A DNA stretch of 24,000 bases from Gammaproteobacteria bacterium (GTDB taxonomy: Bacteria; Pseudomonadota; Gammaproteobacteria; GRL18): positions 1-24,000 of the forward strand of contig JALVDE010000335.1 of NCBI GenBank assembly GCA_027009375.1, read 5' to 3'. The notes beneath the pieces are model-generated. The model searched no databases, was not told where the DNA came from, and worked only from the letters and a program-made list of their open reading frames with translations. Position numbers and translations under genes: made by a program. Every line of letters begins with the position of its first letter. Positions within the stretch are counted from its first letter, which is position 1. Below, piece by piece: positions 686 to 15,524 of this stretch.

Positions 686-1438
686 TTAATGATTGTTAAG
701 GCTTTGAGATGACCATTTTTGAAGTACCCATGCTGATAGAGCACCCAATAATAGCCAGAAAATTCCATTAACAACACCGGTAGCGATCAAAAATTGGTGA
801 TGTAACTCTGTTAACTGTAGAACGACTTCAGGATCCATTTGCTTAAACGGGCTGCCCGTAATAGCAGGTGCCCCAATGAGATGAGGGATCAATAGAAAAA
901 AAACAGCAAATAATTTTTTTGCACCTGTAAGATAAAATAGTAACCCCAGTCCCGTTGCACTGGATATGACCGTAAATACCCACCAGATTTGACGAGCTTC
1001 AAGCGCTGCAGCCTGCATACCCGGTATTTCCGGGTGCAGGCCAAAAGAAGGTGCGATAAAAACCGAAAGATAGCCAGCCACACCCCAGACTATACCCTGC
1101 AATAAACTTACAGGTGTTTTTTTATACATACTGACCAGGTTCATCAAAGACAGCAATACAATTGCATAACCGATGCCAGACAGAATATTGGCTACCACCG
1201 TATAAAAAATTCGTTCTGCACCATCTTCTGGAGCCCACGCCTCTTCATCATGGTGATTATCACTCATTGTACCAGAACCAGAAGGGGTATGTTGATGCGA
1301 TTCCTGTTCAGTACTGCTTTCAAACTTTTCAGCCGCATAGATTATATCTGACACCTGAAACTGCTGTATAACACTGAATACAACACCCGCTATGATGCCC
1401 ACCAGAAGGGCACTAAAAATAATATTACGAAACAACAT
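686..1438 (-). CDS. cbtA: Predicted cobalt transporter subunit CbtA (multi-pass membrane protein with His-rich loop)
   Basis: 250 aa. It has an N-terminal TM helix followed by AEKFE, a His/acidic loop (HQHTPSGSG..DNHHDEE), and then several hydrophobic helices. It sits downstream of cbtB and the cbi operon, the usual CbtAB context. Confidence 0.8.
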   Translation of the reverse strand: MLFRNIIFSALLVGIIAGVVFSVIQQFQVSDIIYAAEKFESSTEQESHQHTPSGSGTMSDNHHDEEAWAPEDGAERIFYTVVANILSGIGYAIVLLSLMNLVSMYKKTPVSLLQGIVWGVAGYLSVFIAPSFGLHPEIPGMQAAALEARQIWWVFTVISSATGLGLLFYLTGAKKLFAVFFLLIPHLIGAPAITGSPFKQMDPEVVLQLTELHHQFLIATGVVNGIFWLLLGALSAWVLQKWSSQSLNNH

Positions 1439-1570
1439 AAAAGCTCTCTTTATCCGGGCAAAGCATCACCTGTAAAACAGGTAAGCCTGTAGCCGGTTGG
1501 TCACAGATTATTTTGTATTGCACAAAACAGCTCAAACAAAAATTTTATAACCGGTATAACATTAATTATT

Positions 1571-1768
1571 TTAGTGACAGGGGAATGCAAAGGTATGACG
1601 AGTATCATGGGCAGCATTGTGTGCTTCTGCAGTTGGTAAGAAACCGACAGCATAAAGAACAACCATACCCAATATAATAGCACCGGCTATTTGTGACAGT
1701 AGTGTCATAGATTTTGGTTGCAGCTCTGCCTTGCTTTCAGACAGGGGGTTCAGGGTTGTTGTTTTCAT
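1571..1768 (-). CDS. cbtB: Predicted cobalt transporter subunit CbtB (small single-TM protein)
   Basis: The C-terminus HNAAHDTRHTFAFPCH matches the CbtB signature (HDxRH..FPCH), preceded by one TM helix. I chose the ATG at 1768 (MKTTTLNP..., GGAG 10 nt upstream) rather than the ORF-track start at 1792. Confidence 0.8.
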   Translation of the reverse strand: MKTTTLNPLSESKAELQPKSMTLLSQIAGAIILGMVVLYAVGFLPTAEAHNAAHDTRHTFAFPCH

Positions 1769-1830
1769 TATAATATTACTCCGATATAGCACACATTATA
1801 TGTATACTGGTTAACTCAAGACTATTCACA

Positions 1831-1859
1831 ATTCTAATTGAGCGGTAAAAACTTGTAAA
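1831..1859 (-). promoter_or_regulatory. Candidate sigma70-type promoter for cbtBA (TTTACA-17 nt-TAGAAT on the minus strand)
   Basis: The minus strand reads TTTACA (1859..1854), a 17-nt spacer, then TAGAAT (1836..1831). This sits in the 112-nt gap between the cbiH stop and the cbtB start. Sequence match only. Confidence 0.3.
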
Positions 1860-1880
1860 GATCTACTGTCAAAACCTGAT

Positions 1881-3191
1881 TTACTGTCTGTGTACTTCGA
1901 TACTCATCAAGCGATTACCTTCAAAATCAGAAAAAACCCATTGAGTTTTACTGTCCGAAACCATCTCCCATACATGTTCAACCCTGTTTCGCTCAATTTC
2001 AACGTCCAAATTATTCACATTTAATGCAATAACATCCGGCGTGATAACACAACTGCTTTTATTTAACCTGGCTTTCAGTTCAACACCCCTGTAACTTATT
2101 TTCAAAATAAACGGCTGATTTTCCTCAATATTATTTAAAATATGTTCAAATTCAGTGATATCAGTAAGCTGTCTGACAGCCATTCCGTTAACCGGGCCGC
2201 TCTCCTGTTGCCATGCACTAAAAACCGATGCTTCTGTTGTATTAAAGTAGTCTGCTATTTCAGCAAATGAATGCTCAGGATGTTGTCTGGCATATTCAAT
2301 TACACAGTTATACCAGGAAGCCAGTCCCATATTCAGTGAACGCCCGGCCTTTTCACCTTCATGAATCTCCCCGGTTAGATCCTTATATTTATTGGCGTAG
2401 CCCCTTGGAGTGATCATAAGTTGTTCCTGCATAAAAGTGCTACTATTGCCAATGAGTACCGTGGACAACATACCGATATCACACTCAGACATTTTATCAA
2501 GAGTGGTGTACTGAATATTCTGTTTATGACGGTAGGCTGATTTAACAATTGCTACCGGTGTCTGTGCAGAGCGATAACGCAATAGTATTTTCTGAGCCTC
2601 TACAATCTGGCCGGTACGACGGCCACTTTTGGGGTTATATAAAGCAATAACAAAGTCACCCTTAGCCGCTGATTCAATACGACGGGCAATAACAGGCCAT
2701 GGTGTCAGCAGATCGGATAATGAAATAGAACAAAAATCATGGGTAAGCGGAGCACCCACCAGCGCAGCACATGCCGATAAGGCGGTTGTGCCTGGAACCA
2801 CTTCAACCTGAATAGAACTGTCCGGTGTCCAGCCGGACTGCAACAAAACTTCATAGGTAGGACCGGCCATCCCGTAGATCCCAATATCACCGGATGATAC
2901 CAGTGCAACCACTTTGCCCTGTTTGGCCTGGTCATAAGCTTCTATACAACGGTCAATTTCTTCAGTCATACCTTTTCGAATAACCTGTTTATCATCCAGT
3001 AAATCTTTAACCAGTCTGATATACGTACTATAGCCTATGACCACATCCGCCTTATTGATCACATCAAGTGCACGCTGTGTCATATGTTCACGGCTGCCAG
3101 GGCCAAAGCCGACCAGATAAATTTTTCCTGACACAGATGATGCTGAGGCCTCTGCAGTGGTTTTTATGGATTTCTGAGTATTTGATTGCAT
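1881..3191 (-). CDS. cbiH: Cobalt-factor III / precorrin-3B C17-methyltransferase (CbiH/CobJ) fused to an extra C-terminal ~160-aa ChuX/HutX-like domain
   Basis: The N-terminal ~270 aa is a tetrapyrrole methylase: KIYLVGFGPGS, VIGYSTY, SSGDIGIYGMAG, VPGTTA. At 436 aa the protein is far longer than a canonical ~240-aa CbiH. The C-terminal tail is described under findings. Confidence 0.9.
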   Translation of the reverse strand: MQSNTQKSIKTTAEASASSVSGKIYLVGFGPGSREHMTQRALDVINKADVVIGYSTYIRLVKDLLDDKQVIRKGMTEEIDRCIEAYDQAKQGKVVALVSSGDIGIYGMAGPTYEVLLQSGWTPDSSIQVEVVPGTTALSACAALVGAPLTHDFCSISLSDLLTPWPVIARRIESAAKGDFVIALYNPKSGRRTGQIVEAQKILLRYRSAQTPVAIVKSAYRHKQNIQYTTLDKMSECDIGMLSTVLIGNSSTFMQEQLMITPRGYANKYKDLTGEIHEGEKAGRSLNMGLASWYNCVIEYARQHPEHSFAEIADYFNTTEASVFSAWQQESGPVNGMAVRQLTDITEFEHILNNIEENQPFILKISYRGVELKARLNKSSCVITPDVIALNVNNLDVEIERNRVEHVWEMVSDSKTQWVFSDFEGNRLMSIEVHRQ

Positions 3192-3237
3192 ACAAGTTCT
3201 TTCTTTAAAGGTTAAGAGGTTATGGATTTTATACTAT

Positions 3238-3666
3238 TTATGAACGGAAGCGGGCAATGGAAACGGTTGCATTTCGATTATCAGCTCCACGGTATTTATG
3301 CTTTTCTATAATTAAGTCCTGCATTTGTGTCTGTGCTGATAATAAGGCAGCGGCTTCTGCAACGGCCGGTGTCCCCACAAATTTTCTCACCACTTCTGAA
3401 GGATTGGGCACCTGAACCACTGACAGTTCTCTGGCCGTATAAAAATCAATAGGCAAGTGATATTTTTTTGCAAAACTCAGCAGCCCAGGTTCATCGGATT
3501 TTTTATCAATACTGGCCAAAGTAATCACCTGGGCAAAGGCAAGCCCGCCCTTCTCCAGTGCCTGAAAAACGGCTGTTTCTATACTTTCCATCGGTGTATC
3601 CCGATCACAGCCGATACCAAGTACCACTGAAATTTCAGTGCTGGTTGACGGGGGGTCTATAGACAA
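3238..3666 (-). CDS. cbiG: CbiG C-terminal domain / CobE-like protein (second half of a split cbiG)
   Basis: VVLGIGCDRDT...IDKKSDEPGL...GTPAVAEAAALL is the CbiG_C/CobE pattern. It starts at TTG 3666 with GGAGGG 8 nt upstream. It overlaps the upstream cbiG fragment by 32 nt in a different frame. Confidence 0.75.
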   Translation of the reverse strand: MSIDPPSTSTEISVVLGIGCDRDTPMESIETAVFQALEKGGLAFAQVITLASIDKKSDEPGLLSFAKKYHLPIDFYTARELSVVQVPNPSEVVRKFVGTPAVAEAAALLSAQTQMQDLIIEKHKYRGADNRNATVSIARFRS

Positions 3667-4396
3667 TTAAACGTCCCTCCAGAGTTTTCCATAGTTCTTT
3701 TGATACCAGTGCATGTGTTACCCATAATACAGCAGCATAATTCTCCAGTTTCACATCGTGAAACTGTTTATACAAGTGAATGTTTTCAGGCAGTTTCTTT
3801 TTATAGGGCCACCAGTCAGTACTACCCGCTTCCTGTATAAATGCAATGGGCTCATCATTCACCACATGGGCGGCTACTTTAACCTGGTTCGCATGAGGAG
3901 CCTCCACTGTCCACCCCAGCTCCCTGCCCAGAATATCGACTGGCAATGTCTGACGAGCCTCTGAGGCTGTAGTATAAACAGGAGTCGCATTGAGATATTG
4001 AGCAACATCAGCTGCAAAAGCATTGGCTCCACCAATATGTCCGGATAAAACCGGTATCACAAACTGACCACAATCATCAATTACCACCACACCAGGATCT
4101 TCTCGCTTGGATTTTAAAAAAGGGGCCATTAAGCGAACAGCAGCTCCAATGGAAAAGACCAGTACCAGATAATCATACTCCTCGAATAACTGTCCCATAA
4201 GCAATTTGACGGGAGTCGTTATAGCTCTGGGGCTGTTTGCTGTTTCCGGAAAGTTCTCTTTAGAAGCAATAAATTTTTCTGCAAGAAAAACATCTGCATC
4301 AGGATAATATCCAGCCAGTTTTTTTACAATAGAGGTACCATGCAAAGTAATTGCCACCATGGCTATTCTGGTTTTATCAGCTTCAGAACTATTCAC
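3635..4396 (-). CDS. cbiG: CbiG N-terminal plus middle domains (cobalt-precorrin-5A hydrolase, first part of a split cbiG)
   Basis: 253 aa with IAMVAITLHG, LSGHIGGAN and the ending LIVYRPP, which normally precedes the GIGC segment of CbiG. The GTG start overlaps the cbiL stop as GTGA. The frame ends just after the C6 run. Confidence 0.8.
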   Translation of the reverse strand: MNSSEADKTRIAMVAITLHGTSIVKKLAGYYPDADVFLAEKFIASKENFPETANSPRAITTPVKLLMGQLFEEYDYLVLVFSIGAAVRLMAPFLKSKREDPGVVVIDDCGQFVIPVLSGHIGGANAFAADVAQYLNATPVYTTASEARQTLPVDILGRELGWTVEAPHANQVKVAAHVVNDEPIAFIQEAGSTDWWPYKKKLPENIHLYKQFHDVKLENYAAVLWVTHALVSKELWKTLEGRLIVYRPPVNQH

Positions 4397-5157
4397 TTTT
4401 TCTTTCCGCAGCCACGAATGATTTCACCATGTTCCCGGTGCGGGTTGTGAATAACCAGCAGTGAAAGGTAGTGTGGTCTGGTATGTCTAAGCGTTTGAAG
4501 ATCCGTTACAATTTTTTCATCCGGGGTCCCTGCTCGTTCAATAAAATAACTGCTCTGAAGTAACTGTTTCTGCTCCAGCAAATCAAGCAACTGTTCCATA
4601 ATGGGTTTTACTTTCATCAATACCAGAGTGTCAAAATCCTGCAGCATACGCTCAACAACCTTTACACCATAACCGGCTGGGATTACTGCCATTGTATCAT
4701 CGGCTTCAGTTAAAGGCTTGTTAACACAACTGGCGGCTGCCGCGAACGAAGTAACGCCTGCAATCACCCTGGTTTCCAGGGTCTCATCCAGGGCTTTTAC
4801 GGTACGGGCCAGGTGCCCGAAAGTAGAGTAGGTCGAGGCATCCCCCTCTACCAGAAAAACCGCATCTCGCCCGGATTTCAGAATTTCGATAACTGTCTCA
4901 GCAGCTTCCAGCCAGTACTTTGATAAAATTGCAATATCATGTGTCATGGGAAAGGCCAGCGCAAGTGCATCTTCCGGAACGTCCAGACCTGCCCGTTTAA
5001 CAATATCCAGTGCAAAACTTTCCGCACCTGTTTTTTTTACCGGATACAGCCATTGACAATGACTGTTCAGCACGGCCCAGGCTTCTCTGGTGATCAAACC
5101 TGGATCACCCGGCCCCAGAGAGGCAGCAATCAGCTTTCCTGTTTTTTTAGTTGCCAT
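4393..5157 (-). CDS. cbiL: Cobalt-factor II / precorrin-2 C20-methyltransferase
   Basis: 254 aa with KLIAASLGPGDPGLIT and VFLVEGDASTYSTF, a tetrapyrrole methylase fold typical of CbiL/CobI. Operon context supports the call. Confidence 0.9.
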   Translation of the reverse strand: MATKKTGKLIAASLGPGDPGLITREAWAVLNSHCQWLYPVKKTGAESFALDIVKRAGLDVPEDALALAFPMTHDIAILSKYWLEAAETVIEILKSGRDAVFLVEGDASTYSTFGHLARTVKALDETLETRVIAGVTSFAAAASCVNKPLTEADDTMAVIPAGYGVKVVERMLQDFDTLVLMKVKPIMEQLLDLLEQKQLLQSSYFIERAGTPDEKIVTDLQTLRHTRPHYLSLLVIHNPHREHGEIIRGCGKKK

Positions 5158-5186
5158 AAATTAATTTAAATCCTGATGGTTTACTG

Positions 5187-6509
5187 TTATTGTTTATTTT
5201 CGCCTATGGTCGCAGATACTATCCATACCGGATTATCTGCCTGCAAACGATTCATATTTAAAATAGGCTGACTATGAGCGGCCTGAATTTGTGTCAGCTG
5301 CCATGAAAAACCATACTTTTTCATTATATCCAGAGCTTCATGCAGATTTTCCAGAGTAATAAAGTTCATGACAAGAACACCGTTAGTTTTTATTTTATCA
5401 CAAACTAACTCAATAACTGCTTCCAGTTGCCCGGCGGAACCGCCAATAAATACAGCATCCGGTTCCGGCCAGTGTGCCATTTTTTCTGGTGCTTTGGCAC
5501 ACTCTATGGAATAATTATGAAGCTGCATTTTTTTTCTGTTATTATGAATCAACGCCAGATCATTACAATTTTTTTCAATCGCAAATACATATCCCTGCTC
5601 ACATAAGGAAGCGGCTTCAAGCCCAACCGAGCCTGAACCCGCACCAATATCCCAGACAATGCTTTTTTTATTCAGTTGCATTTTTGCCAGCACTACTGCT
5701 CTAATATCCCTTCGGGTAATCAGCCCTTTATCCGGTTTTCTTTGCTCATAAAAGTGATCCTCATAACCGAACAGCGGCTGCACTATAGGTGGTTTTATCC
5801 GTTCTATCACTAACAGGTTAGGTTGTTTATAGTGGCCTTCAGCAACCTCTTTAACAGACAGCCCCGTATTGATCCGCTCACCGGATTGCAGCAGGCATTC
5901 AAATACTGACAGTTCAAACTGTTCAGCCAGGTTTTCCAGCTGCATCATGTTTGCAATACGTTCCGGACTGTTATCCGGTGAAGTATAAACGGCCAGTAGA
6001 TCATGCTGAACAATATCCGTCAACAACCCATAAAGACCATGTTCCATACCACTGTCAATAGTCCACTCTCCAGCATCTGCAGTATGCACAGAACAGATTC
6101 GGGCTGTTTGCCATGCTTTACCCAGACGAGAAAAAGCAACTTGAACCATTGATAAGTTTGGATGTATCTGCAAAAGGTCATGAGGTATTTTTTTACTTAA
6201 AAAAGCCCCAATACCATGACAAAGGGGATCTCCGGTTGCCAGGACAATCACCCGCCTGTTTTGTTTCAAAGCCGTTTTGATTGTTTCTGGTAATCGTGTC
6301 AATTGCCCGGTTAAATCCATACGTTCAGCATCTGCACGGAAGTCATTATTAAACAACTGCATCGTTCGCCTGCCTGCAATCACCAGTTCTGCCTGCCTGA
6401 CTAATTGCAGCTCTGCTGCCGCCAGCCCCTGCATACCATTATCCAGCACGCCGATAATATGACAACGTCCGGAAAAAATACGGGGTTCCTGTTTGCTGCT
6501 GCCTGTCAT
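5187..6509 (-). CDS. cbiET: Bifunctional cobalt-precorrin-6B/7 C5,C15-methyltransferase and C12-decarboxylase (CbiE-CbiT fusion, CobL-like)
   Basis: 440 aa. The N-terminal half is a tetrapyrrole methylase (VLATGDPLCHGIG). The C-terminal half is a SAM-dependent methyltransferase with VWDIGAGSGSVGLEA and AVFIGGS. Confidence 0.9.
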   Translation of the reverse strand: MTGSSKQEPRIFSGRCHIIGVLDNGMQGLAAAELQLVRQAELVIAGRRTMQLFNNDFRADAERMDLTGQLTRLPETIKTALKQNRRVIVLATGDPLCHGIGAFLSKKIPHDLLQIHPNLSMVQVAFSRLGKAWQTARICSVHTADAGEWTIDSGMEHGLYGLLTDIVQHDLLAVYTSPDNSPERIANMMQLENLAEQFELSVFECLLQSGERINTGLSVKEVAEGHYKQPNLLVIERIKPPIVQPLFGYEDHFYEQRKPDKGLITRRDIRAVVLAKMQLNKKSIVWDIGAGSGSVGLEAASLCEQGYVFAIEKNCNDLALIHNNRKKMQLHNYSIECAKAPEKMAHWPEPDAVFIGGSAGQLEAVIELVCDKIKTNGVLVMNFITLENLHEALDIMKKYGFSWQLTQIQAAHSQPILNMNRLQADNPVWIVSATIGENKQ

Positions 6510-6514
6510 GTTAC

Positions 6515-7639
6515 TTACTCACTATCCAGCTCAAAACGTTTATTACCTTCAAAATCACAAATCATGATTTTTAAGGAAAACTGATGCTCATATTTGTCCA
6601 GCAGAGTTTTTCTGACTCGTCTGGCCAGATGGTAATAAAATTCATCTATCAGCCCCAGTTGTATCATTTGCTCACTGGCATATCTGGCGGTATCAGCTCG
6701 GGAAATATCATCAACTACATCTTCTGGAGCACCGGCTGCTCTGGCAATGTCTGCAACCAGAGTCATATTAACCGGATTTTTTCTGGCATGAGTAATGTTT
6801 TCACCCTGCGCCATTTTAGCCAGTTTGCCCACCATGGCACCAATAATAATCCGTCTGATACCATTATTAACACAGGTATCCAGAGCCACTTTTAAAAAGT
6901 CCCCCATCTGAACAAAGCAGACCGATGGTAACTCAGGCAATTCACGAATTACAAATTTTTCTGTGCGCCCTCCCGTTGTCAGCACAATAGTTTGCTGTTG
7001 TTGTTTCACCGCAACCTCAATGGACTGAATCACACTGGAACGAAAAGCCGCTGTTGACCACGGATGTACAATGCCGCTGGTACCCAATATAGAAATACCA
7101 TTGATAATACCCAGCCGCTCATTAAGGGTTCTTTTCGCCATTTTTTCACCCTCCGGTACAGATACCACCACTTTCATACCGTATTTTCGCAGCAAATCTG
7201 CCGCCACCTGCTGAATATTTTCTCTGATATTTTTCTGCGGTACCGGGTTTATGGCCGGCCCGTTGACTTTCAAACCCAGACCTTCCTGAGTCACCGTTCC
7301 TACACCGGGGCCGTTATCCAGAATAATTTTGCCCGCCATCTCTCTGATCAGATACAGATCAACAGTTAGTCTGGCCTTATCTGTTACGTCAGGGTCATCA
7401 CCCGCATCTTTAATAACAACGGCTCTGGCCTGCACTGGACTGATAATGTCACACTCAGCCACAGCAAAATTAACCTCTGTTCCATTAGGCAAACAACAGC
7501 AAACCGTATCCACAGGAGCCCCCTTAACAAGAGACAGAGCCGCTGCCCGTGCTGCGGCCGCTGTGCAGGCACCGGTAGTAAAACCTTTACGATTGCCTCT
7601 TTTTTTCCGATTAGATTTTTTTTTGGCAGCTTCAGGCAT
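6515..7639 (-). CDS. cbiD: Cobalt-precorrin-5B C1-methyltransferase
   Basis: 374 aa with RKGFTTGACTAAAARAA near the N-terminus and ILGTSGIVHPWS, both typical CbiD motifs. Confidence 0.9.
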   Translation of the reverse strand: MPEAAKKKSNRKKRGNRKGFTTGACTAAAARAAALSLVKGAPVDTVCCCLPNGTEVNFAVAECDIISPVQARAVVIKDAGDDPDVTDKARLTVDLYLIREMAGKIILDNGPGVGTVTQEGLGLKVNGPAINPVPQKNIRENIQQVAADLLRKYGMKVVVSVPEGEKMAKRTLNERLGIINGISILGTSGIVHPWSTAAFRSSVIQSIEVAVKQQQQTIVLTTGGRTEKFVIRELPELPSVCFVQMGDFLKVALDTCVNNGIRRIIIGAMVGKLAKMAQGENITHARKNPVNMTLVADIARAAGAPEDVVDDISRADTARYASEQMIQLGLIDEFYYHLARRVRKTLLDKYEHQFSLKIMICDFEGNKRFELDSE

Positions 7640-7666
7640 TACATATTATCCTGGTATGAGTGTTAC

Positions 7667-8326
7667 TCAGCCAATAGCCTGTGCCAACAGAGCATGTATT
7701 GCAGATACCACCAGTGTAGTTCCCCCTTTTCGACCCCGGGTAATAATCCAGGGTACTGATTGTAACTGAGCCAGGCTGTCTTTTGATTCGGCAGCCGAGA
7801 CAAAGCCAACTGGCATACCAATGATCAGTCCGGGTTTTATATTTTCTTCTTTTACCAGCCTGATCACTTCCAGCAGTGCAGTAGGTGCGTTACCAATTGC
7901 AATGACGGCCCCATCGAGCAAACCTTTTTCAGCCGCTTTGCGCATTGCCTGTACCGCCCGGGTTGTTGCCTGCTCTCTGGCCTGTTCAATAACATCCTCA
8001 TCACTGATAAACTGGTAGGTCTCAATACCAAAGTGTGCCAGCCTGGGTCTGGATAAACCGACACATATCATTTCCACATCGGCGATCACCGGACAGCCAT
8101 TTTTCAGAGCCTGAATACCGGCCACAACAGCTTCAGGATGAAAAGCCGTCAGGCCATTAAATTCAAAATCCGCAGTGGCATGGATCATACGTCGAACAAC
8201 CGGCCATTGCTCTGCCGTATAATTATGAGGCCCCGCCTCTTTATCAACGACATCAAAAGATGCATGCTCTATTTTCTGACCCTCACGGGTCATTTGTTCC
8301 ATTACATTATGTTGAGATTCAGCCAT
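7667..8326 (-). CDS. cbiC: Cobalt-precorrin-8 methylmutase (precorrin-8X methylmutase)
   Basis: 219 aa with RMIHATADFEF, IAIGNAPTAL and KPGLIIGMPVGFV, the CbiC/CobH pattern. Confidence 0.9.
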   Translation of the reverse strand: MAESQHNVMEQMTREGQKIEHASFDVVDKEAGPHNYTAEQWPVVRRMIHATADFEFNGLTAFHPEAVVAGIQALKNGCPVIADVEMICVGLSRPRLAHFGIETYQFISDEDVIEQAREQATTRAVQAMRKAAEKGLLDGAVIAIGNAPTALLEVIRLVKEENIKPGLIIGMPVGFVSAAESKDSLAQLQSVPWIITRGRKGGTTLVVSAIHALLAQAIG

Positions 8327-8347
8327 AAAATACTCTTATTTGTGTAA

Positions 8348-9103
8348 TTAAAGACATTCACGAATACGTTGTTCAACCAGCTCCAGAATTTCAGGCTCAA
8401 AACCAAAATGCCGACTGTGAACAAAGCTGATATCTGGATATTGTACACTGATCCGTTGTACCTGCCTGTCAATCCGTTCGAGTAATATACCATCAAATAA
8501 ATAATAGGGTAATATAACAACTTGTTTCATACCCAACTTTACCTGACGCTGAACTACCGTTTCCAGTCGGGGATAACATACTCCGGTAAATGCAAGTTCA
8601 ACCAGTTCATGCTCATTATCTTCAAATATCAACCGTGCCATTTTTGCCATTTCAGCATTGGCCTGTGCATCAGACGATCCCCGTGCCAGAACAATAACAC
8701 CGGTATTTTTGGGATCAGGCATCGCCAGACGTGACATTTGTTTTTTCAGATAGCGATTCATAATATTCAGAATCAACTCATCTGTACCGATATGTGAAGC
8801 ATAGACAAAACGGGTATCCGGATTTTTCTTTCTGGCAGCATCAATATATTCCGGTATTTCTTCTTTAACATGACCGGCTGCATTTAGTATTAAAGGAACG
8901 ACAATCACTTTATCTGATTTATCAGCCGCATCCTGAAGCCCGGCATCTAACAGATAGTCTGCCAGCTCGATATAACACACGTCTATATTCCATTGCGGAC
9001 ATTTTTGTTGAAGGTTTTGGGTAAATTCCTGTATCTGTTGGTTTCCAGTAGCATTTCTGGAACCATGCCCAATGAGCAATATGCTTTCTTTGAGTTTTGT
9101 CAT
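8348..9103 (-). CDS. cbiX: Sirohydrochlorin cobaltochelatase, two-domain (long) CbiX type
   Basis: 251 aa made of two tandem CbiX-like halves: ILLIGHGSRNATGN...VVPLILNAGHV, and VIVLARGSSDAQAN...VILPYYLFDGIL. Confidence 0.85.
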   Translation of the reverse strand: MTKLKESILLIGHGSRNATGNQQIQEFTQNLQQKCPQWNIDVCYIELADYLLDAGLQDAADKSDKVIVVPLILNAAGHVKEEIPEYIDAARKKNPDTRFVYASHIGTDELILNIMNRYLKKQMSRLAMPDPKNTGVIVLARGSSDAQANAEMAKMARLIFEDNEHELVELAFTGVCYPRLETVVQRQVKLGMKQVVILPYYLFDGILLERIDRQVQRISVQYPDISFVHSRHFGFEPEILELVEQRIRECL

Positions 9104-9117
9104 ATTTTTATCCTGGC

Positions 9118-9945
9118 TCAGTCTGTTGTTTTTTTTCGGTTGTTTTTAATTCTGAATTTATGGTTAAATTCTTCTGCATACAGGCGGGATTTTTTAATAT
9201 CCTTGAAATACCTGGCCCCAAGAGTTGGACTGATAATAATCATCGCCTGACTGGTTATTCCTTCTGCCTTGCATTTTGCTCGAATGGTTTTAATGGTTCC
9301 CCTGATAATTTTTTCTTCACCGGGCCAGCTTGCTTTCTGGACAACAAGAACCTGAGCATCTTCTGACCACCCGGCCTTTAGCAAACTGTCCTCTATTTTG
9401 TGCAGTAAAGTAATGGATAAAAACAGACACAATGTTGTCTTATGTCTGGCCAGTTCTTCCAGTGACTCGCCCTCAGGCATCGGGGTTCTTCCCTCAACCC
9501 GGGTAAAAATAACGGTTTGCGTAACCTCTGGCAATGTCAGTGTTTCCTTTGCAGCTGCCGCGGCTGCCAGTGCGGATGAAACACCCGGAACCAGCTCGGA
9601 CTCAATACCTTCGTTATCCAATGCCTGTATAATTTCAACCAGAACACCGTATAAACCCGGATCGCCTGTCTGCAGACGAATAACCACTGATTTATTTCTG
9701 GCTCTCTCTATCAGCCAATGATTTATCTGTTCCAGCGTCATTCCTTTGGAATCTGCAATTTCACAGTCTGCTTTTGACCAGCGCATTACAGTCTCACTGA
9801 CCAGTGAGCCGGTATATAAAATAGCATCGGCCCGGGCTATTAAATCTCTCCCCTTAACTGTAATTAAATCCGGATCGCCAGGACCGGCTCCAATAAACCA
9901 GACCTTCATTCCCCCTGATAAAGAATTATTTTCACTATTTTTCAA
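9118..9945 (-). CDS. cbiF: Cobalt-precorrin-4 C11-methyltransferase
   Basis: MKVWFIGAGPGDPDLITVKG, LQTGDPGLYG and VPGVSS motifs. The start is ambiguous: TTG at 9945 (GGAG 10 nt upstream) or ATG at 9909 (MKVWFIG..., closer to homologue N-termini). Confidence 0.9.
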   Translation of the reverse strand: MKNSENNSLSGGMKVWFIGAGPGDPDLITVKGRDLIARADAILYTGSLVSETVMRWSKADCEIADSKGMTLEQINHWLIERARNKSVVIRLQTGDPGLYGVLVEIIQALDNEGIESELVPGVSSALAAAAAAKETLTLPEVTQTVIFTRVEGRTPMPEGESLEELARHKTTLCLFLSITLLHKIEDSLLKAGWSEDAQVLVVQKASWPGEEKIIRGTIKTIRAKCKAEGITSQAMIIISPTLGARYFKDIKKSRLYAEEFNHKFRIKNNRKKTTD

Positions 9946-9966
9946 TTTATGATGACTCCATCCTGT

Positions 9967-11274
9967 TTATTTATTAACTGCCAAAAAAAATTGCAGTGAT
10001 GCCTGTGTTGAACTGGGAAAATACCAATGAATGTAGGACGCAATCAGAGAACCTGAAATAATGCCGTGATCACCTCTTGATACATCAAATGCAGGGCTAA
10101 CTTCATGATAACTTTCACGTATGGAGTGATGAAATTCATGCCCCTTCAAACCTACAAAGGTACCGCTGCGACATTCTCGATAGCCTAGTGAAGCCAGCCT
10201 GGGCGTCATTTTTGTTTCAATGGGCAATACACCCGCCATGGTCCATGACTGCCCTTGCAGATCGGTTAATGTTTGTCCCAGCAGCATCATTCCGCCGCAT
10301 TCAGCCAGTACCGGTTTATGCTGTTGCACAATTTTTTTGATTGAAAGCAAGCTGTCTGATGCTGATAATTGTTCGGCATACAGTTCGGGATACCCACCCG
10401 GCAGCCAGAGCGCATCAGCATTATCAGGTACCTTATCGCCTTCAAGAAGAGAAAAATAATGAATGTTTGCCCCCTGTTGCTTTAACCAGTCAATATTGGC
10501 CGGGTATATAAAACAGCAGGCATCATCTCTGGCAACCGCAATGTTTTTTCCTTTCAGGGGCTGGTTTGGCTGTTTATCCTGCAAGACCTGGGGTTTATGC
10601 TCTAAAGGTGCCGCTAAAAAAGCCGGTAAATCATGCTCTACAATATTAAGGTGAGCTCGAAAATCAGGCAATGGGCTGTCATCAGGTCTGACCAGCCCCA
10701 AATGCCGTTCTGGTAACGGAGGTACCGATTTATCCAGCCATGCAATCAGGGGTGGAAGATGATATTCACTTAAGTGAGCCTGTAGCAGCTCTGCATGATG
10801 GCGACTGCCAACACGATTAGCAATGATGCCTGTGATTTTTACACCGCATTGCTCTGCAAAACCTTTAAATCCCGATACCAGCGGCACAATTGAGCCGCTC
10901 ATACCCTTTGCATCAACAACCAGCCAGATATCCAGCCCCAGCTGTTGAGCCAGATTAAGCGTCGAGCCGTCCTGCCCCACACCCGTGCGACCATCAAAAA
11001 GCCCCATAACACCTTCAACTACAGAGACTTCAATATCCTTTTGTTGAGCTTGTAGCAGTTTGTCCTGACATTCTGCCAGTCCAGTCATTCGGGTGTCCAG
11101 ATTATAGGAATCAAGACCGGTCAGCTTCTTATGCCACAAAGGATCCAGGAAGTCCGGGCCAGCCTTAAAACCACAGACTTTCTTTCCGCAAGCCATAAAA
11201 TATTGAATAATAGCAAGTGTTGCGGTTGTTTTACCGCATCCGGACTGGACGCCGGCAATGACTATTGTTTGCAT
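9967..11274 (-). CDS. cbiA: Cobyrinate a,c-diamide synthase (glutamine-hydrolysing)
   Basis: 435 aa. The N-terminus has a P-loop (IAGVQSGCGKTT) and the C-terminus has a glutamine amidotransferase domain (LAECGGMMLLG, GHEFHHS). Confidence 0.9.
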   Translation of the reverse strand: MQTIVIAGVQSGCGKTTATLAIIQYFMACGKKVCGFKAGPDFLDPLWHKKLTGLDSYNLDTRMTGLAECQDKLLQAQQKDIEVSVVEGVMGLFDGRTGVGQDGSTLNLAQQLGLDIWLVVDAKGMSGSIVPLVSGFKGFAEQCGVKITGIIANRVGSRHHAELLQAHLSEYHLPPLIAWLDKSVPPLPERHLGLVRPDDSPLPDFRAHLNIVEHDLPAFLAAPLEHKPQVLQDKQPNQPLKGKNIAVARDDACCFIYPANIDWLKQQGANIHYFSLLEGDKVPDNADALWLPGGYPELYAEQLSASDSLLSIKKIVQQHKPVLAECGGMMLLGQTLTDLQGQSWTMAGVLPIETKMTPRLASLGYRECRSGTFVGLKGHEFHHSIRESYHEVSPAFDVSRGDHGIISGSLIASYIHWYFPSSTQASLQFFLAVNK

Positions 11275-11289
11275 AAGGAAGCCGTAATA

Positions 11290-13086
11290 TTAATCAAGAT
11301 GCGTCTGAAACCACATTTCCAGTAGTGCCATATGCCAGAGTTTACTGCCTTTAAGGCGGGTCATATTTTCTTTGGCTTCGGGATTTTTTAACAGGCGCTG
11401 GATATAGGAAGGTTCAAAAACTCCCCTTTCTTTACACTTCTGTGAGGTCAGTACATCGGTCATCATATCCAGGAATTCACCGCGTACATATTTGAGGGCG
11501 GGCATGGGGAAATAGCCTTTGGGGCGATCAATAACGGCATCGGGAATACGACCACGGGCAATGGTTTTCAGCACATGTTTACCACCCTGCTGGCCAATTT
11601 TATAGTGGCCGGGCATCTGTGCTGCCAGTTCTACCAGCTTATGATCCAGAAACGGCACCCTGGCTTCCAGACCCCAGGCCATGGTCATATTATCCACGCG
11701 TTTAACGGGATCGTCCACAATCAGGGTAGTGACATCCATACGCAGCACCCTGTCCAGAAATTCATCGGCATAAGGGGCGGTCAGCAGGTCATTAACCAGT
11801 TCTGAAGTATAATCCTTACCGTGAAAACGACGAGTAACAGACTGCAGAAATTCATCATGATGACGGTCAAAATAATAAGGAGCAAAGCTGTCCAGTTCAT
11901 TATGGCCTTCTTCCCAGGCTTTAACCATTAAGGGATACCAGAAATAACCGGCAAATACTTCATCCGCCCCCTGACCGCTCTGTACTACTTTAACTTCTTT
12001 GGCCACCCGTTCAGATAATAAATAAAAAGCCACGGCATCCTGACCGACCATCGGTTCAGCCATCTGGGTAATCGCTTCAGGCAGTCGATCCAGTACTTCA
12101 TGGTTGGGGATCATATATTTGTGGTGTAGCGTGTTATAGCGTTCTACCACCTGATCACTGTATTCAAACTCACTGCCCTGTTCGTCACCGATATCATTAA
12201 AACCGATAGAAAAGGTTCGGATATCCTCAACCCCTGCTTCTGCAAGCAACGCAACCAGCAGACTGGAATCCAGACCACCGGACAATAAGACACCGACCGG
12301 CACATCAGCAATGGTCAGACGTTTTTTTACGGCAGACATTAAGGCATCATGGATGGCCTCAGTCCATTGTACTTCGTTCCAGTCAGCCTTAAGCGGATCA
12401 CGGATGGCTTTCAGATGCCAGTAGCGATGGTATTTCATATTTCCGCCGGAATCAATTTTAATGCTGGTTCCGGGGGCCAGTTTTTTTACTCCCTGTAAAA
12501 TAGTGTCGGGGGCAGGGATCACGGCATGCAGGGTAAACTGATGATGCAGACCAACGGGATTAATTTCTTTATTAATATGACCAGCGGCCAGCAGAGCCTG
12601 CATATTAGAAGCAAAGACAAAACGGTTATCATCCAGGCTGTAGTACAGAGGCTTGATGCCCAGGCGATCCCGGGCGACAAACAGACTGTAATCTCGCAGG
12701 TCAAGAATGGCAAAAGCAAACATACCGTGCAGTCGCTCGACACATTGTTCACCCCATTCAACATAGGCTTTAATAATGACTTCTGAATCACCATCTGAAA
12801 AAAACTTATAACCTTTCTGGGTCAGCTGTTCTTTTAATTCGGGATAATTGTATATGGTGCCGTTAAACACCAGCGCCATGTGCAGCTGGTTATCCACCAT
12901 GGGCTGGTTGGACTTTTCAGACAGATCAATAATGGACAGGCGGCGATGGCCAAGCGCCACTGGGCCTTCATGGAAAATACCTTCATTGTCCGGGCCGCGC
13001 CGTTCGAGCTTCTTAAGCATGGCCTGGATCACATTCAGATCAGGTTTGGAGCCATCAAATTGAAAATCACCGCATATTCCGCACAT
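11290..13086 (-). CDS. asnB: Asparagine synthase family glutamine amidotransferase, AsnO-like (N-acetylglutaminylglutamine amidotransferase-type)
   Basis: 598 aa. It has the class-II amidotransferase N-terminus MCGICG and HRRLSIIDL, plus the PP-loop SGGLDSS. The N-terminal ~150 aa closely track my recollection of the Pseudomonas/Sinorhizobium AsnO-type proteins. Confidence 0.85.
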   Translation of the reverse strand: MCGICGDFQFDGSKPDLNVIQAMLKKLERRGPDNEGIFHEGPVALGHRRLSIIDLSEKSNQPMVDNQLHMALVFNGTIYNYPELKEQLTQKGYKFFSDGDSEVIIKAYVEWGEQCVERLHGMFAFAILDLRDYSLFVARDRLGIKPLYYSLDDNRFVFASNMQALLAAGHINKEINPVGLHHQFTLHAVIPAPDTILQGVKKLAPGTSIKIDSGGNMKYHRYWHLKAIRDPLKADWNEVQWTEAIHDALMSAVKKRLTIADVPVGVLLSGGLDSSLLVALLAEAGVEDIRTFSIGFNDIGDEQGSEFEYSDQVVERYNTLHHKYMIPNHEVLDRLPEAITQMAEPMVGQDAVAFYLLSERVAKEVKVVQSGQGADEVFAGYFWYPLMVKAWEEGHNELDSFAPYYFDRHHDEFLQSVTRRFHGKDYTSELVNDLLTAPYADEFLDRVLRMDVTTLIVDDPVKRVDNMTMAWGLEARVPFLDHKLVELAAQMPGHYKIGQQGGKHVLKTIARGRIPDAVIDRPKGYFPMPALKYVRGEFLDMMTDVLTSQKCKERGVFEPSYIQRLLKNPEAKENMTRLKGSKLWHMALLEMWFQTHLD

Positions 13087-13149
13087 AACCGGCTCTGTCC
13101 TTTTTTAAGTTATTTTTGAGTGACTGCTTTTATTTTTCCACCGCAGGCG

Positions 13150-13677
13150 CTATTCTTCTGTCGCTGGACGCAGCTGAATAACCACCAGTTTTGAAATCAC
13201 TCTGGACACACCCCGGGTACTTTTTGCCAGAGCAATGGCTTTAACAGCACTTTCTTCTGAATTAACACTACCCATTAAGGTGACCACACCGGCATTAACT
13301 TCAATGCCAATATCATCCCGTTTGACCACCGGATCTTCGGAGTATTTTTTACTGATCATGACATTAATTTTTGCATCGGCTTCTGCAGTACTTGCCGCCA
13401 CGACAGGTTCATAAACCGCTTTATCTTTATACGCCTGCTGCTCTTTAAGTCTTTGTTCCTTAGCTTCTTTTTCTTCCTGCGCCTTAATTTCCTCATTGGA
13501 ATCCACACCGGGCACCCAGTCAGTGGCATCACGTACGGTACTGCAGGCTGACAGCAGTGCAAAACTCAGTACCAGAGCAAAAGCAGCACCCAGTTTTTTT
13601 GCGCGGGTATTTAATATCATGGCATTAGTTAAAAAGTGTGTGTTCATAAAACGCATTTTCCTTATTGTTATATTCAA
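13150..13677 (-). CDS. BON-domain (OsmY-like) lipoprotein
   Basis: Lipobox LLSAC after a hydrophobic stretch, a Lys/Glu-rich linker, and a C-terminal BON pattern (IGIEVNAGVVTLMGSVNSEE..A.A....GV..V). The start is uncertain: TTG 13677, or ATG at 13656, 13647 or 13620. The last gives a classical 26-aa lipoprotein signal peptide. Confidence 0.75.
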   Translation of the reverse strand: MNITIRKMRFMNTHFLTNAMILNTRAKKLGAAFALVLSFALLSACSTVRDATDWVPGVDSNEEIKAQEEKEAKEQRLKEQQAYKDKAVYEPVVAASTAEADAKINVMISKKYSEDPVVKRDDIGIEVNAGVVTLMGSVNSEESAVKAIALAKSTRGVSRVISKLVVIQLRPATEE

Positions 13678-13697
13678 TTATCAGAGTTGTATTCAGA

Positions 13698-15254: not shown

Positions 15255-15524
15255 TAAGAGCTGGTTTCAGGTTTCAGGGGATTACATGACATTTATAGGT
15301 ATATTTTACATGATTTAGGCTTAGTAGCATGTTTATTTGTGCAAAAACTCAAATAACCCACTATTTTAGTCTGTTATTTACCTGAAAAAAGGTTTATACT
15401 CTGAGGCACAAACATATTAGTTAATTATTTCACTGATTGAGTCTGTTGTCAGCCAGACAGGTTAACAGCATACTCAACAGGTTTAACATTTTACCTAAAA
15501 ATTACCTAAAAAACGGAGCACAAC

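Follow-up and report, generated by a model that had tools for sequence, protein, structure and literature searches.

Organization of the cbiH locus

The window, i.e. the whole 24,000-nucleotide stretch of gammaproteobacterial DNA analyzed here, carries an early-cobalt-insertion cbi operon, the last biosynthetic gene of which is a cbiH extended by a long C-terminal tail (cf. Table 1), and this gene order is kept in relatives. A first-pass annotation made from the letters of the DNA had described the encoded CbiH as oversized, with an extra C-terminal part, and this was confirmed, as the 436-residue product matches the TIGR01466 model only up to residue 266. All peptide strings quoted in that annotation were found in the translated reading frame, and the interval that it assigned to the extra part, 1884-2369, corresponds to residues 275-436. 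The enzyme domain was recognized by NCBIfam TIGR01466 cobJ_cbiH (residues 24-266, E-value 4e-98, 327.6 bits against a cutoff of 246.35), by Pfam TP_methylase PF00590 (residues 23-233, 1.7e-35) and, among PDB sequences, by 2zvb (4e-78) and 3nut (1e-35). With a score above the curated cutoff, residues 22-266 are, as judged from sequence, a bona fide CbiH/CobJ domain. Since the methyltransferase models (TIGR01466 and Pfam) span 239-247 positions, about 170 of the 436 residues are surplus to the enzyme. The earlier view that a new domain starts right after ...PRGYANKY was correct as to this surplus, but the first 20 residues or so belong to a C-terminal extension known in a CbiH subfamily, because the alignment with 2zvb, a solved stand-alone CbiH of 295 residues, reaches residue 286 of the window protein. 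The truly added domain comprises about residues 293-436 (nucleotides 1884-2315), i.e. about 145 amino acids. It is preceded by a linker, which is the best-conserved portion of the tail: its motif GE.xG.SL.MGL..W is invariant throughout the family (62 tails) and is retained in "stub" variants devoid of the beta part, and its first half aligns to the C-terminus of 2zvb. In an AlphaFold2 (AF2) model of the isolated tail, the linker has low pLDDT.

Table 1. Features of the cbiH locus, with positions in the window.
Feature	Position	Strand	Basis
Whole cbiH-plus-tail ORF, 436 aa + stop codon	1881..3191	(-)	ORF list
CbiH/CobJ class III tetrapyrrole methyltransferase domain, residues 22-266	2394..3128	(-)	TIGR01466, PF00590, PDB 2zvb/3nut
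Linker, residues 267-292, KDLTGEIHEGEKAGRSLNMGLAS	2316..2393	(-)	invariant columns across 62 tails
Predicted helical HTH-like N-terminal subdomain of ChuX-like domain, residues 293-335, incl. YARQHPEHSFAEIADYFNTTEASVFSAW	2187..2315	(-)	AF2
Predicted beta-sheet subdomain of ChuX-like domain, residues 336-436	1884..2186	(-)	AF2, Foldseek
Codons D396-V397-E398, place of the family's invariant His-x-His	1998..2006	(-)	hhalign, MAFFT
Early-cobalt-insertion cbi operon, upstream genes cbiA-F-X-C-D-ET-L-G(N/mid)-G(C)	3238..11274	(-)	NCBIfam
cbtB	1571..1792	(-)	TIGR02459/TIGR02458 (cbtB + cbtA)
cbtA	686..1438		TIGR02459/TIGR02458 (cbtB + cbtA)

The fusion of CbiH with the tail is native

It had been pointed out that the tail might belong to a gene of its own downstream of cbiH, with which a frameshift or a faulty assembly would have merged it. 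An arrangement of this type was found in the metagenome contig L082 (coverage of about 1.1x), where a stop codon splits a 300-residue CbiH from a 159-residue tail ORF. However, the exact 436-residue protein of the window is recorded on four independent contigs, three close variants are equal in length, and the junction with the enzyme is formed by the highly conserved linker. Furthermore, cbiH and the tail form a single ORF in 80 of the 80 loci kept from a genome scan (query: an alignment of nine tails plus the PRGYANKY segment), including complete genomes of Methylococcus, Methylomonas, Methylobacter and Methylotuvimicrobium, with Methylococcus capsulatus among these loci. The fusion is native, and the artefact explanation is already refuted, its probability being negligible. 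Three apparently stand-alone tail genes (P0035, P0038 and P0039) proved to be fragments or to come from the 1.1x-coverage contig, and were set aside as "Rosetta stone" evidence.

The tail is related to the HemS/ChuX superfamily

Searched by itself, the window tail gave no Pfam or NCBIfam match at E ≤ 10, no PDB sequence matched it, and a word-indexed protein search found nothing; in this form, the profile-HMM search suggested by the first-pass annotation was negative. The profile of the small "short-tail" subgroup to which the window belongs was equally uninformative, its comparison with the PDB giving HemS at a non-significant E-value of 1.2, and its hhalign comparison with ChuX being non-significant as well (E-value 0.01, probability 4%). 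Nor did the window tail match the HutX equivalog TIGR04108, for which its relatives score 21-31 bits, far below the cutoff of 110. However, among 1.84 billion proteins, the tail matched the CbiH tails P0003-P0005 over its full length (5e-11 to 9e-10), and the short-tail profile aligned with that of the "long-tail" proteins over 165 columns (hhalign E-value 1.6e-37, probability 99.95%). Fifty-seven of the 62 tails matched Pfam ChuX_HutX (PF06228) on their own, the best at 4e-14, and 55 matched PF05171, whereas the family profile found HemS (1e-10), ChuS (1e-9) and ChuX (1e-4). The short-tail member L003 by itself matched TIGR04108 with an E-value of 8e-7. The helical subdomain of the tail aligns with ChuX residues 7-35 (EFLKTEPDGTLEVVAEQYNTTLLEVV) and has weak similarity to the helix-turn-helix (HTH)-repeat proteins P0006 and P0010.

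The predicted structure pointed in the same direction. The AF2 model of the tail (pLDDT 86.2, pTM 0.76), which could be drawn to the fold of the long-tail sequences that dominated its input alignment, contains 3+1 helices and nine strands. The three N-terminal helices have pLDDT above 90, and the beta-sheet subdomain, consisting of nine strands and one helix (pLDDT of about 85-95), stops just past the last strand with no C-terminal helix. Members of the superfamily consist of N-terminal helices and an eight- or nine-stranded antiparallel beta-sheet (PMC10404700), and the predicted three helices and curved antiparallel sheet of the window tail would fit this fold. In a Foldseek comparison with the PDB, as had been proposed for ChuX and HutX, the top 21 matches were all ChuX, HutX, HemS, PhuS or ChuS (E-values from 3.8e-8 to 1e-3, TM 0.55-0.67). 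Since the window tail alone matches no library entry, its assignment rests on transitive homology and predicted structure; on these grounds, it is very probably a divergent domain of HemS/ChuX/HutX fold, homologous to the HemS/ChuX superfamily. The original proposal of a ChuX/HutX-like tail is thus upheld through the relatives and the model, but not by the tail taken alone. The sequence from which that proposal started had been given as Escherichia coli ChuX (ECs_4384), which actually differs from it; the quoted string is the N-terminal half of ChuS (ECs_4379), in which ALDLRLFLNQWASVF aligns with NLDVEIERNRVEHVW of the window, and this is the resemblance that had been seen. Because ChuX and ChuS share one superfamily, the lead was still useful.

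Pocket residues and evolutionary rate of the window copy

The CbiH-ChuX fusion family is widespread, with members in methanotrophs, iron oxidizers and sulfur oxidizers. Most of them have a long tail with invariant Trp-Gly, Arg, Arg, Glu and His-x-His residues, the last being H129 and H131 of the long-tail profile. His65 and His98 of ChuX and Arg100 of ChuS are proposed to contact haem in the binding pocket, as reported by Suits et al. in 2006 and 2009. The second His of the His-x-His falls in the column of ChuX His98 and ChuS Arg100, while ChuS His193 found no reliable placement in the helical region (MAFFT). In alignments made with hhalign and with MAFFT including ChuX and ChuS, the columns of ChuX His65 and His98, which hold an invariant Arg and His in long-tail relatives, are occupied by S366 and E398 in the window, so that ChuS Arg100 also corresponds to E398. 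The entire short-tail clade has lost the Trp-Gly, the two Arg, the Glu and the His-x-His, as well as the C-terminal helix; the window residues at the lost invariant positions are N358, Q359, I362, S366, K373, D396 and E398. This replacement of all haem-pocket positions that are invariant in long tails weakens, for the window copy, the earlier idea of a tethered carrier or sensor.

These observations bear on the possibility that the domain of the window lineage binds no ligand and survives as a vestige that stabilizes or dimerizes CbiH. ChuX is a dimer that imitates the two-halved ChuS, and the class III methyltransferases form dimers too. Every family-invariant polar residue is lost, and the replaced positions are variable even inside the short-tail clade and among strains: between strains more than 92% identical, the pocket columns show S366N, L363C/F and R375M, which argues against a conserved ligand-binding site. 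The conserved residues of the beta part in the short-tail subgroup are limited to a hydrophobic/Gly core (I117, W137, F149, G154 and L157 in tail numbering). In addition, the window beta-sheet subdomain is only 26-29% identical to those of the loci L001-L004, compared with 87-90% for the methyltransferase domain, and it evolves 5-7 times faster than the latter. The stub variants P0018, P0047 and L046 have no beta part at all, which indicates that CbiH can function in some lineages without the ChuX-like domain. However, in the lineage of the window, the beta part has a dN/dS of 0.20-0.27 (0.04-0.08 for the methyltransferase domain), and among L001-L004 its value is 0.10-0.17. The window beta part is still under purifying selection, and a ratio that far below 1, together with an ORF intact in four of four strains, implies that some function is maintained. 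A purely structural role would also leave unexplained why a tetrapyrrole-carrier fold is joined to a tetrapyrrole enzyme in hundreds of genomes. We consider the vestigial or structural reading rather unlikely.

Operon context, ferredoxin and riboswitch

In most long-tail relatives, the cbiH-tail gene is followed by a translationally coupled gene for a thioredoxin-like 2Fe-2S ferredoxin, which usually overlaps the cbiH-tail stop codon by 8 nt. In the window, this slot is occupied by cbtB and cbtA, and a tblastn search revealed no 2Fe-2S ferredoxin gene. Of the 69 His-x-His loci whose downstream sequence was long enough, 66 had the ferredoxin gene, as against none of four short-tail loci. These counts would be expected if the domain were a redox module, in which a haem prosthetic group on the His-x-His relays electrons from the adjacent ferredoxin to cobalt-factor III, and CbiH60, with the Fe-S extension reported by Moore et al. 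in 2013, would be a precedent. Nevertheless, the stub variant P0047 retains the coupled ferredoxin without a beta part, while the long-tail locus L023 has none, so the presence of the ferredoxin follows the CbiH subfamily and not the ChuX domain. All short-tail loci fall into a single clade, so that the association counts as roughly one evolutionary event; because of this and of the stub variant, the idea that the ferredoxin goes strictly with the His-x-His beta-domain (Fisher p = 2e-5) was downgraded. A redox module could not apply to the window copy, which has neither the two His residues nor the ferredoxin, and this reading is highly improbable.

The first-pass annotation had also considered that the domain might sense haem or B12. 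As a sensor, it would tune CbiH, the committed ring-contraction enzyme, allosterically on binding haem or finished corrinoid, or its HTH-like helices would make a regulatory contact. No cobalamin riboswitch was detected in the window at gathering and permissive thresholds, though one is present in the operons of relatives, so protein-level feedback would be useful here. The helical segment resembles HTH repeats, and titles cited in PMC12670364 refer to ChuX as a regulator of ChuS and to PhuS as a transcriptional regulator. On the other hand, long-tail relatives with the conserved His and Arg keep the riboswitch too, hence the domain is no riboswitch substitute across the family; the window copy is devoid of the conserved putative ligand residues, and DNA binding is unsupported. 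Taken together, a regulatory role appears quite improbable.

Proposed function and significance

We propose that the ancestral domain would hold a cobalt-tetrapyrrole beside the active site of CbiH. The candidate ligand would be either the substrate, cobalt-factor III/cobalt-precorrin-3, or the labile product, cobalt-precorrin-4, with the His ligating the metal and the Arg residues pairing with the carboxylates. The intermediate might be protected there and handed on, in the way that haem passes from HutX and ChuS to HutZ, HutW and ChuW. The window lineage would possess a weakened derivative, which, in the absence of axial ligation, probably still binds the macrocycle or shields it, or else aids assembly of the dimeric enzyme. 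By analogy with the haem carriers, the chances are about even that the window tail is such a tethered, partly degenerate tetrapyrrole-holding domain; that this copy still binds a tetrapyrrole is, from its sequence and model, a slightly more doubtful matter. A broader and more tentative idea is that CbiH-ChuX constitutes an undescribed accessory module of oxygen-independent B12 synthesis in aerobes and microaerophiles. It would be a tethered chaperone that holds and shields the oxygen-labile compound consumed or formed in ring contraction, usually with a dedicated coupled ferredoxin that supplies reductant as the Fe-S domain of CbiH60 is said to do, and the window clade would be a His-less and ferredoxin-less variant in which the ligand is bound without axial ligation or the domain is bypassed. 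In its entirety, this scheme is unlikely.

Within the oxygen-independent B12 pathway, ring contraction poses the hardest chemistry, is understood least and has labile intermediates. The haem-carrier fold on CbiH points to a built-in means of holding, protecting or reducing cobalt-tetrapyrrole intermediates. We found no paper describing a CbiH-ChuX fusion in the literature, and in public annotation, the full-length proteins bear no other name than "precorrin-3B C(17)-methyltransferase", under which the ChuX-like domain is hidden. Hundreds of aerobic or microaerophilic bacteria possess the fusion, among them the genetically tractable methanotrophs Methylotuvimicrobium buryatense 5G and Methylococcus capsulatus, so that the transfer of intermediates between enzymes and the source of electrons become testable questions. 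If the proposal is true, the HemS/ChuX family extends from haem scavenging to cofactor biosynthesis. The chief value of the window copy is that of a naturally degenerate variant with which others can be compared.

Comparison with known systems

Residues 22-266 of the window protein are like canonical CbiH/CobJ (TIGR01466; 2zvb and 3nut), and so is the position of the gene after cbiG in the cbi operon. However, the canonical proteins end at about 240-295 residues and have no ChuX-like domain. The free-standing haem carriers ChuX and HutX (PF06228; PDB 2OVI, 6U9J, 5EXV and 2PH0) share with the window tail its predicted fold and size and the order of sequence elements, they are its best Foldseek matches (4e-8 to 2e-6, TM 0.61-0.67), and their family HMMs are matched by its relatives. 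They differ from it in that (i) the CbiH tail is fused to an enzyme, (ii) they come from haem-uptake operons, whereas the window gene lies in a B12 operon, no haem-utilization setting of the hutWXZ/chuWXY kind being found there, and (iii) their His65 and His98 (ChuX) are replaced by Ser and Glu in the window tail, from which the C-terminal helix is missing too. The two-domain proteins HemS, ChuS and PhuS (PF05171) are tandem duplications, while the window tail is a single domain that folds, as predicted, like each of their halves (Foldseek E-values from 3e-5 to 1e-3); the family profile matches HemS, and Arg100 of ChuS is replaced by Glu. Haem binds to ChuX, ChuS and HutX with 1:1 stoichiometry and is passed by ChuS to the SAM enzyme ChuW (PMC10404700), and HutX delivers haem to HutZ and HutW (PMC12670364). 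These carriers hold a tetrapyrrole and pass it to a tetrapyrrole-modifying enzyme, and by analogy, the tail of CbiH may do the same.

A different accessory domain is found at the C-terminus of CbiH60 from Bacillus megaterium, an aerobe that reportedly runs the oxygen-independent pathway. As Moore et al. are said to have described in 2013, this CbiH has a Cys-rich C-terminal extension that carries a 4Fe-4S cluster and is related to nitrite/sulfite reductases. The window CbiH resembles it in the C-terminal placement of the additional domain, but the two extensions are unrelated: the window tail contains just two Cys residues (C296 and C381) and gave no match to nitrite/sulfite-reductase or Fe-S families in Pfam, and is thus not of the CbiH60 type. 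Moreover, CbiH60 carries its own Fe-S center, whereas long-tail relatives encode a separate, translationally coupled 2Fe-2S ferredoxin. The occurrence of two such different extensions, in CbiH60 and in the window CbiH, suggests by analogy that helper modules are recruited to ring contraction time and again.

The C-terminal extension of CbiH is a native fusion

The CbiH of the window had been described in the first-pass annotation as carrying an extra C-terminal region, and comparison with family models confirmed this; all the peptide strings quoted there are present in the 436-residue translation. Residues 24-266 matched the CbiH/CobJ equivalog-domain model TIGR01466 (4e-98, 327.6 bits; cutoff 246.35), and Pfam TP_methylase also matched the methyltransferase part. 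Since methyltransferase family models cover 239-247 positions, the excess amounts to about 170 residues. The solved structure of a free-standing CbiH (PDB 2zvb, 295 aa) aligns to residue 286, through '...TPRGYANKY...GE..G.SL', so the extension begins with a C-terminal tail already found in a CbiH subfamily, and the truly additional domain lies beyond it (cf. the table). The reading that the tail is a separate gene joined to cbiH by an assembly or frameshift artefact was refuted: the identical protein is recorded on four independent contigs (NCBI, JGI, ENA, Logan), and cbiH plus tail formed one ORF (about 425-466 aa) in all 80 loci (L001-L080) kept from a scan of species-representative genomes, which gave more than 550 matching stretches. 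Gene order was the same across these loci, and the 90% cluster of the window protein holds three further variants, each of 436 aa. The fusion occurs in complete genomes (Methylococcus capsulatus, Methylomonas, Methylobacter, Methylotuvimicrobium buryatense 5G) as well as in Bathymodiolus methanotrophic symbionts, Gallionella/Sideroxydans/Ferrovum, Mariprofundaceae and Chromatiales/Thioalkalispiraceae.

Positions of the features discussed in the window and in related loci
Feature	Position	Strand	Remarks
cbiH-tail ORF	window 1881..3191	minus	436 aa
Truly additional domain	window 1884-2315	minus	~residues 293-436
CbiG_C, CobE-like	window 3238-3666	minus	142 aa, TTG start
CbiG_N/mid	window 3635-4396	minus	253 aa
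Early-cobalt-insertion corrin operon		minus	cbiA, cbiF, cbiX, cbiC, cbiD, cbiET, cbiL, split cbiG, then cbiH-tail
Ferredoxin gene after cbiH-tail	e.g. L075:10632-11006; L038:10623-10976		most long-tail loci among L005-L080
Stub CbiH variants	P0018 (L083:7001-7978); P0042-P0048 (L085:2515-3459); L046		
RF00174	L002:909-1058; L003:601-828; L059:1059-1291; L025:292-420; L075:285-414		operon heads
chuS	L081:8513-9541		E. coli O157:H7 Sakai
chuX	L081:14539-15033		E. coli O157:H7 Sakai

Homology and predicted fold of the tail

Searched by itself, the window tail gave no match with E<=10 in Pfam, NCBIfam or PDB sequences. HMMER, run exhaustively against 1.84 billion representatives, returned only ten hits, eight of them CbiH tails and two of them large HTH-repeat proteins (P0006 and P0010) that matched the helical segment only. 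The profile search proposed earlier was thus negative for this tail by itself but positive through its relatives: Pfam ChuX_HutX was matched individually by 57 of 62 tails (best 4e-14) and the HemS/ChuX domain by 55 of them, while a profile of nine tails reached HemS (2e-6), ChuX 2OVI (1.7e-5) and 6U9J (2e-5), and one of all 62 reached HemS (1e-10) and ChuS (1e-9). The five tails lacking a ChuX_HutX match belong to the window and to L001-L004, which are its closest relatives at 44-45% tail identity. A profile of the short-tail subgroup (the window's clade) alone did not reach HemS or ChuX; aligned by hhalign with that of the long tails (the family majority, with a His-x-His motif and a C-terminal helix), it gave a probability of 99.95% (E 1.6e-37, 165 columns), and the two groups are unambiguously homologous. 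The short-tail member L003 alone matched the HutX model TIGR04108 (8e-7). An AlphaFold2 model of residues 267-436, built from a 32-sequence alignment (pLDDT 86.2, pTM 0.76), contained three N-terminal helices, one further helix and nine strands, in agreement with the published fold description of the HemS/ChuX family (PMC10404700). The top 21 Foldseek matches of this model in the PDB were all ChuX/HutX/HemS/PhuS/ChuS structures (E from 3.8e-8, TM 0.55-0.67), the first unrelated fold appearing only at E ~1e-2 and TM <0.3. Profiles and predicted structure together indicate that the tail very probably has a ChuX/HutX-type fold, as originally supposed; neither of the two outcomes named in advance as refuting that idea was observed. 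The string given at that time as E. coli ChuX is, however, exactly the N-terminal half of ChuS, and true ChuX reads differently (cf. the genes of E. coli O157:H7 Sakai); both are members of one superfamily.

Residues 293-335 (window 2187-2315, ...QHPEHSFAEIADYFNTTEAS...) resemble a unit repeated at least five times in P0006 and P0010 (E ~2e-5 to 3e-4), and the N-terminal subdomain of ChuX-type proteins may, judging from this similarity, be HTH-derived.

Precomputed Pfam annotation of relatives (e.g. P0012, P0020) already shows this domain architecture, and detached fragments of the tail carry the NCBI name 'ChuX/HutX family heme-like substrate-binding protein'; full-length fusions are named only 'precorrin-3B C(17)-methyltransferase'. 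In the open-access literature we found no mention of CbiH together with ChuX, no use of PF06228/ChuX_HutX in a B12 context and, in the tetrapyrrole and corrin reviews covered, no mention of the fusion. We read the tail as a HemS/ChuX-type carrier fold recruited to B12 biosynthesis, of which the window copy is a divergent, HMM-invisible member.

Loss of family-invariant residues and relaxed constraint

Among 31 diverse long-tail members, W90, G91, R94, R98, E106, H129 and H131 were invariant (M. capsulatus tail numbering). When the tails were aligned with real ChuX and ChuS, R98 fell in the column of ChuX His65, and H131 in the one that holds ChuX His98, ChuS Arg100 and, from the C-half of ChuS, a His; in the ChuX and ChuS structures these positions reportedly face the haem pocket. 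All seven residues are replaced in the window (N358, Q359, I362, S366, K373, D396, E398), where a haem-based electron relay would be highly improbable. Their columns are also variable within the short-tail clade, and the pocket region varies even among >92%-identical strains (S366N, L363C/F, R375M). Short tails, unlike ChuX and the long tails, end directly after the last strand without a C-terminal helix.

Window and L001-L004 share 87-90% identity in the methyltransferase domain but only 26-29% in the beta part (residues 336-436). Synonymous changes are unsaturated within the window's own lineage, so dN/dS could be measured there, giving 0.20-0.27 for the beta part (best-supported pairs) and 0.04-0.08 for the enzyme domain; within L001-L004 the beta part gave 0.10-0.17. 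The domain is therefore maintained by selection under a constraint 3-5 times looser than that on the enzyme. It is no relic in decay, and its behaviour is also not that of a domain whose ligand site is fixed; we consider it rather unlikely that it persists as a purely structural remnant.

In stub forms of CbiH (314-325 aa) the invariant linker motif and the first helices are still present but the beta-sheet part is missing, and L046 encodes an 856-aa CbiG-CbiH fusion whose tail measures 68 aa; erosion of the ChuX-like domain has therefore occurred several times independently. Between window 1884-3191 and L088:1786-3093 (a close strain), dS was 0.33 in the methyltransferase part and only 0.04-0.09 in the tail, whereas close strain L086 showed the opposite, a higher dS in the tail; this mosaic pattern suggests that recombination has taken place inside the gene, close to where the two domains meet.

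Operon context

The fusion gene is the last biosynthetic gene of its operon and is followed by cbtB, cbtA and the Grx4 glutaredoxin gene. The two cbiG ORFs lie in different frames with a 32-nt overlap, and since the same split is present in L003, L082 (a low-coverage metagenome contig), L083, L085 and L086-L088, it is a conserved natural arrangement, not a frameshift error. No cbiJ/cobK (cobalt-precorrin-6A reductase) was found in the conserved cbiA-to-cbiH operon of the window (686-11274) or of L001-L080, and it must be encoded elsewhere or replaced by something else. The search for a cobalamin riboswitch was negative over the whole window, also when the threshold was made permissive for the operon-head region (11274-15300); RF00174 stands at the operon head in 5 of 7 related loci searched. 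In the window, an N-acetylglutaminylglutamine amidotransferase gene (11290-13086, TIGR03104) ends 15 nt before the start of cbiA, and the operon head has apparently been replaced. A domain acting as a haem or corrinoid sensor would fit the lack of the relatives' riboswitch in this operon, but long-tail relatives keep both domain and riboswitch, and we regard a sensor as improbable. The cbtB and cbtA genes lie downstream of the fusion gene in the window (686-1792) and at the operon head, just after the riboswitch, in most relatives (L007, L014, L025, L060-L075). After grx4, close strain L087 carries IS66-family transposase genes (6216-7311) and L086 and L088 a DUF1451 gene; the downstream flank is therefore variable.

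Proposed function and comparison with known systems

We propose that the ancestral ChuX-like domain would hold a cobalt-tetrapyrrole beside the CbiH active site, with His ligating cobalt and Arg residues pairing with the tetrapyrrole carboxylates, and would thereby protect the labile intermediate and pass it on. The window's domain would be a weakened derivative, which either binds with no axial ligand or serves chiefly in enzyme assembly. Haem is passed by ChuS to the SAM enzyme ChuW (PMC10404700) and by HutX to HutZ and HutW (PMC12670364); by analogy, a carrier function of the CbiH tail is plausible but unproven, and for the window's copy it is weakened. The family-level finding, a fusion with a coupled ferredoxin in tractable methanotrophs, is of more interest than this degenerate copy.

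The next gene in long-tail loci encodes a thioredoxin-like [2Fe-2S] ferredoxin of ~115 aa (PF01257 4e-6; NF041612 1e-14). Of the 69 His-x-His loci whose sequence extends far enough downstream, 66 have it; in 30 loci its start codon and the stop codon of cbiH-tail overlap by 8 nt, an arrangement that suggests translational coupling. Many long tails (e.g. L059, L012, L018, L028) have an acidic C-terminus with the motif ...(N/S/T)(D/N)E-stop, which may be constrained by the overlapping ferredoxin start and not by the function of the protein. The ferredoxin gene is lacking in all four short-tail loci (window, L002-L004), in the window over the whole of 1-24000; the position after cbiH-tail is taken by cbtBA in the window and by a CbiM-like gene in L002-L004. 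The link is not strict: the coupled ferredoxin is retained in a 314-aa stub reduced to linker and helices, it is missing from stub P0018, from L046 and from L023, a long-tail locus, and the short-tail loci are one clade. We therefore take the ferredoxin to be a partner of this CbiH subfamily and not of the beta domain in particular. It may be a redox partner for ring contraction. The Fe-S extension of Bacillus megaterium CbiH60 is reportedly needed to use oxidised cobalt-factor III, and a long-tail CbiH with its coupled ferredoxin recalls that enzyme with its extension.
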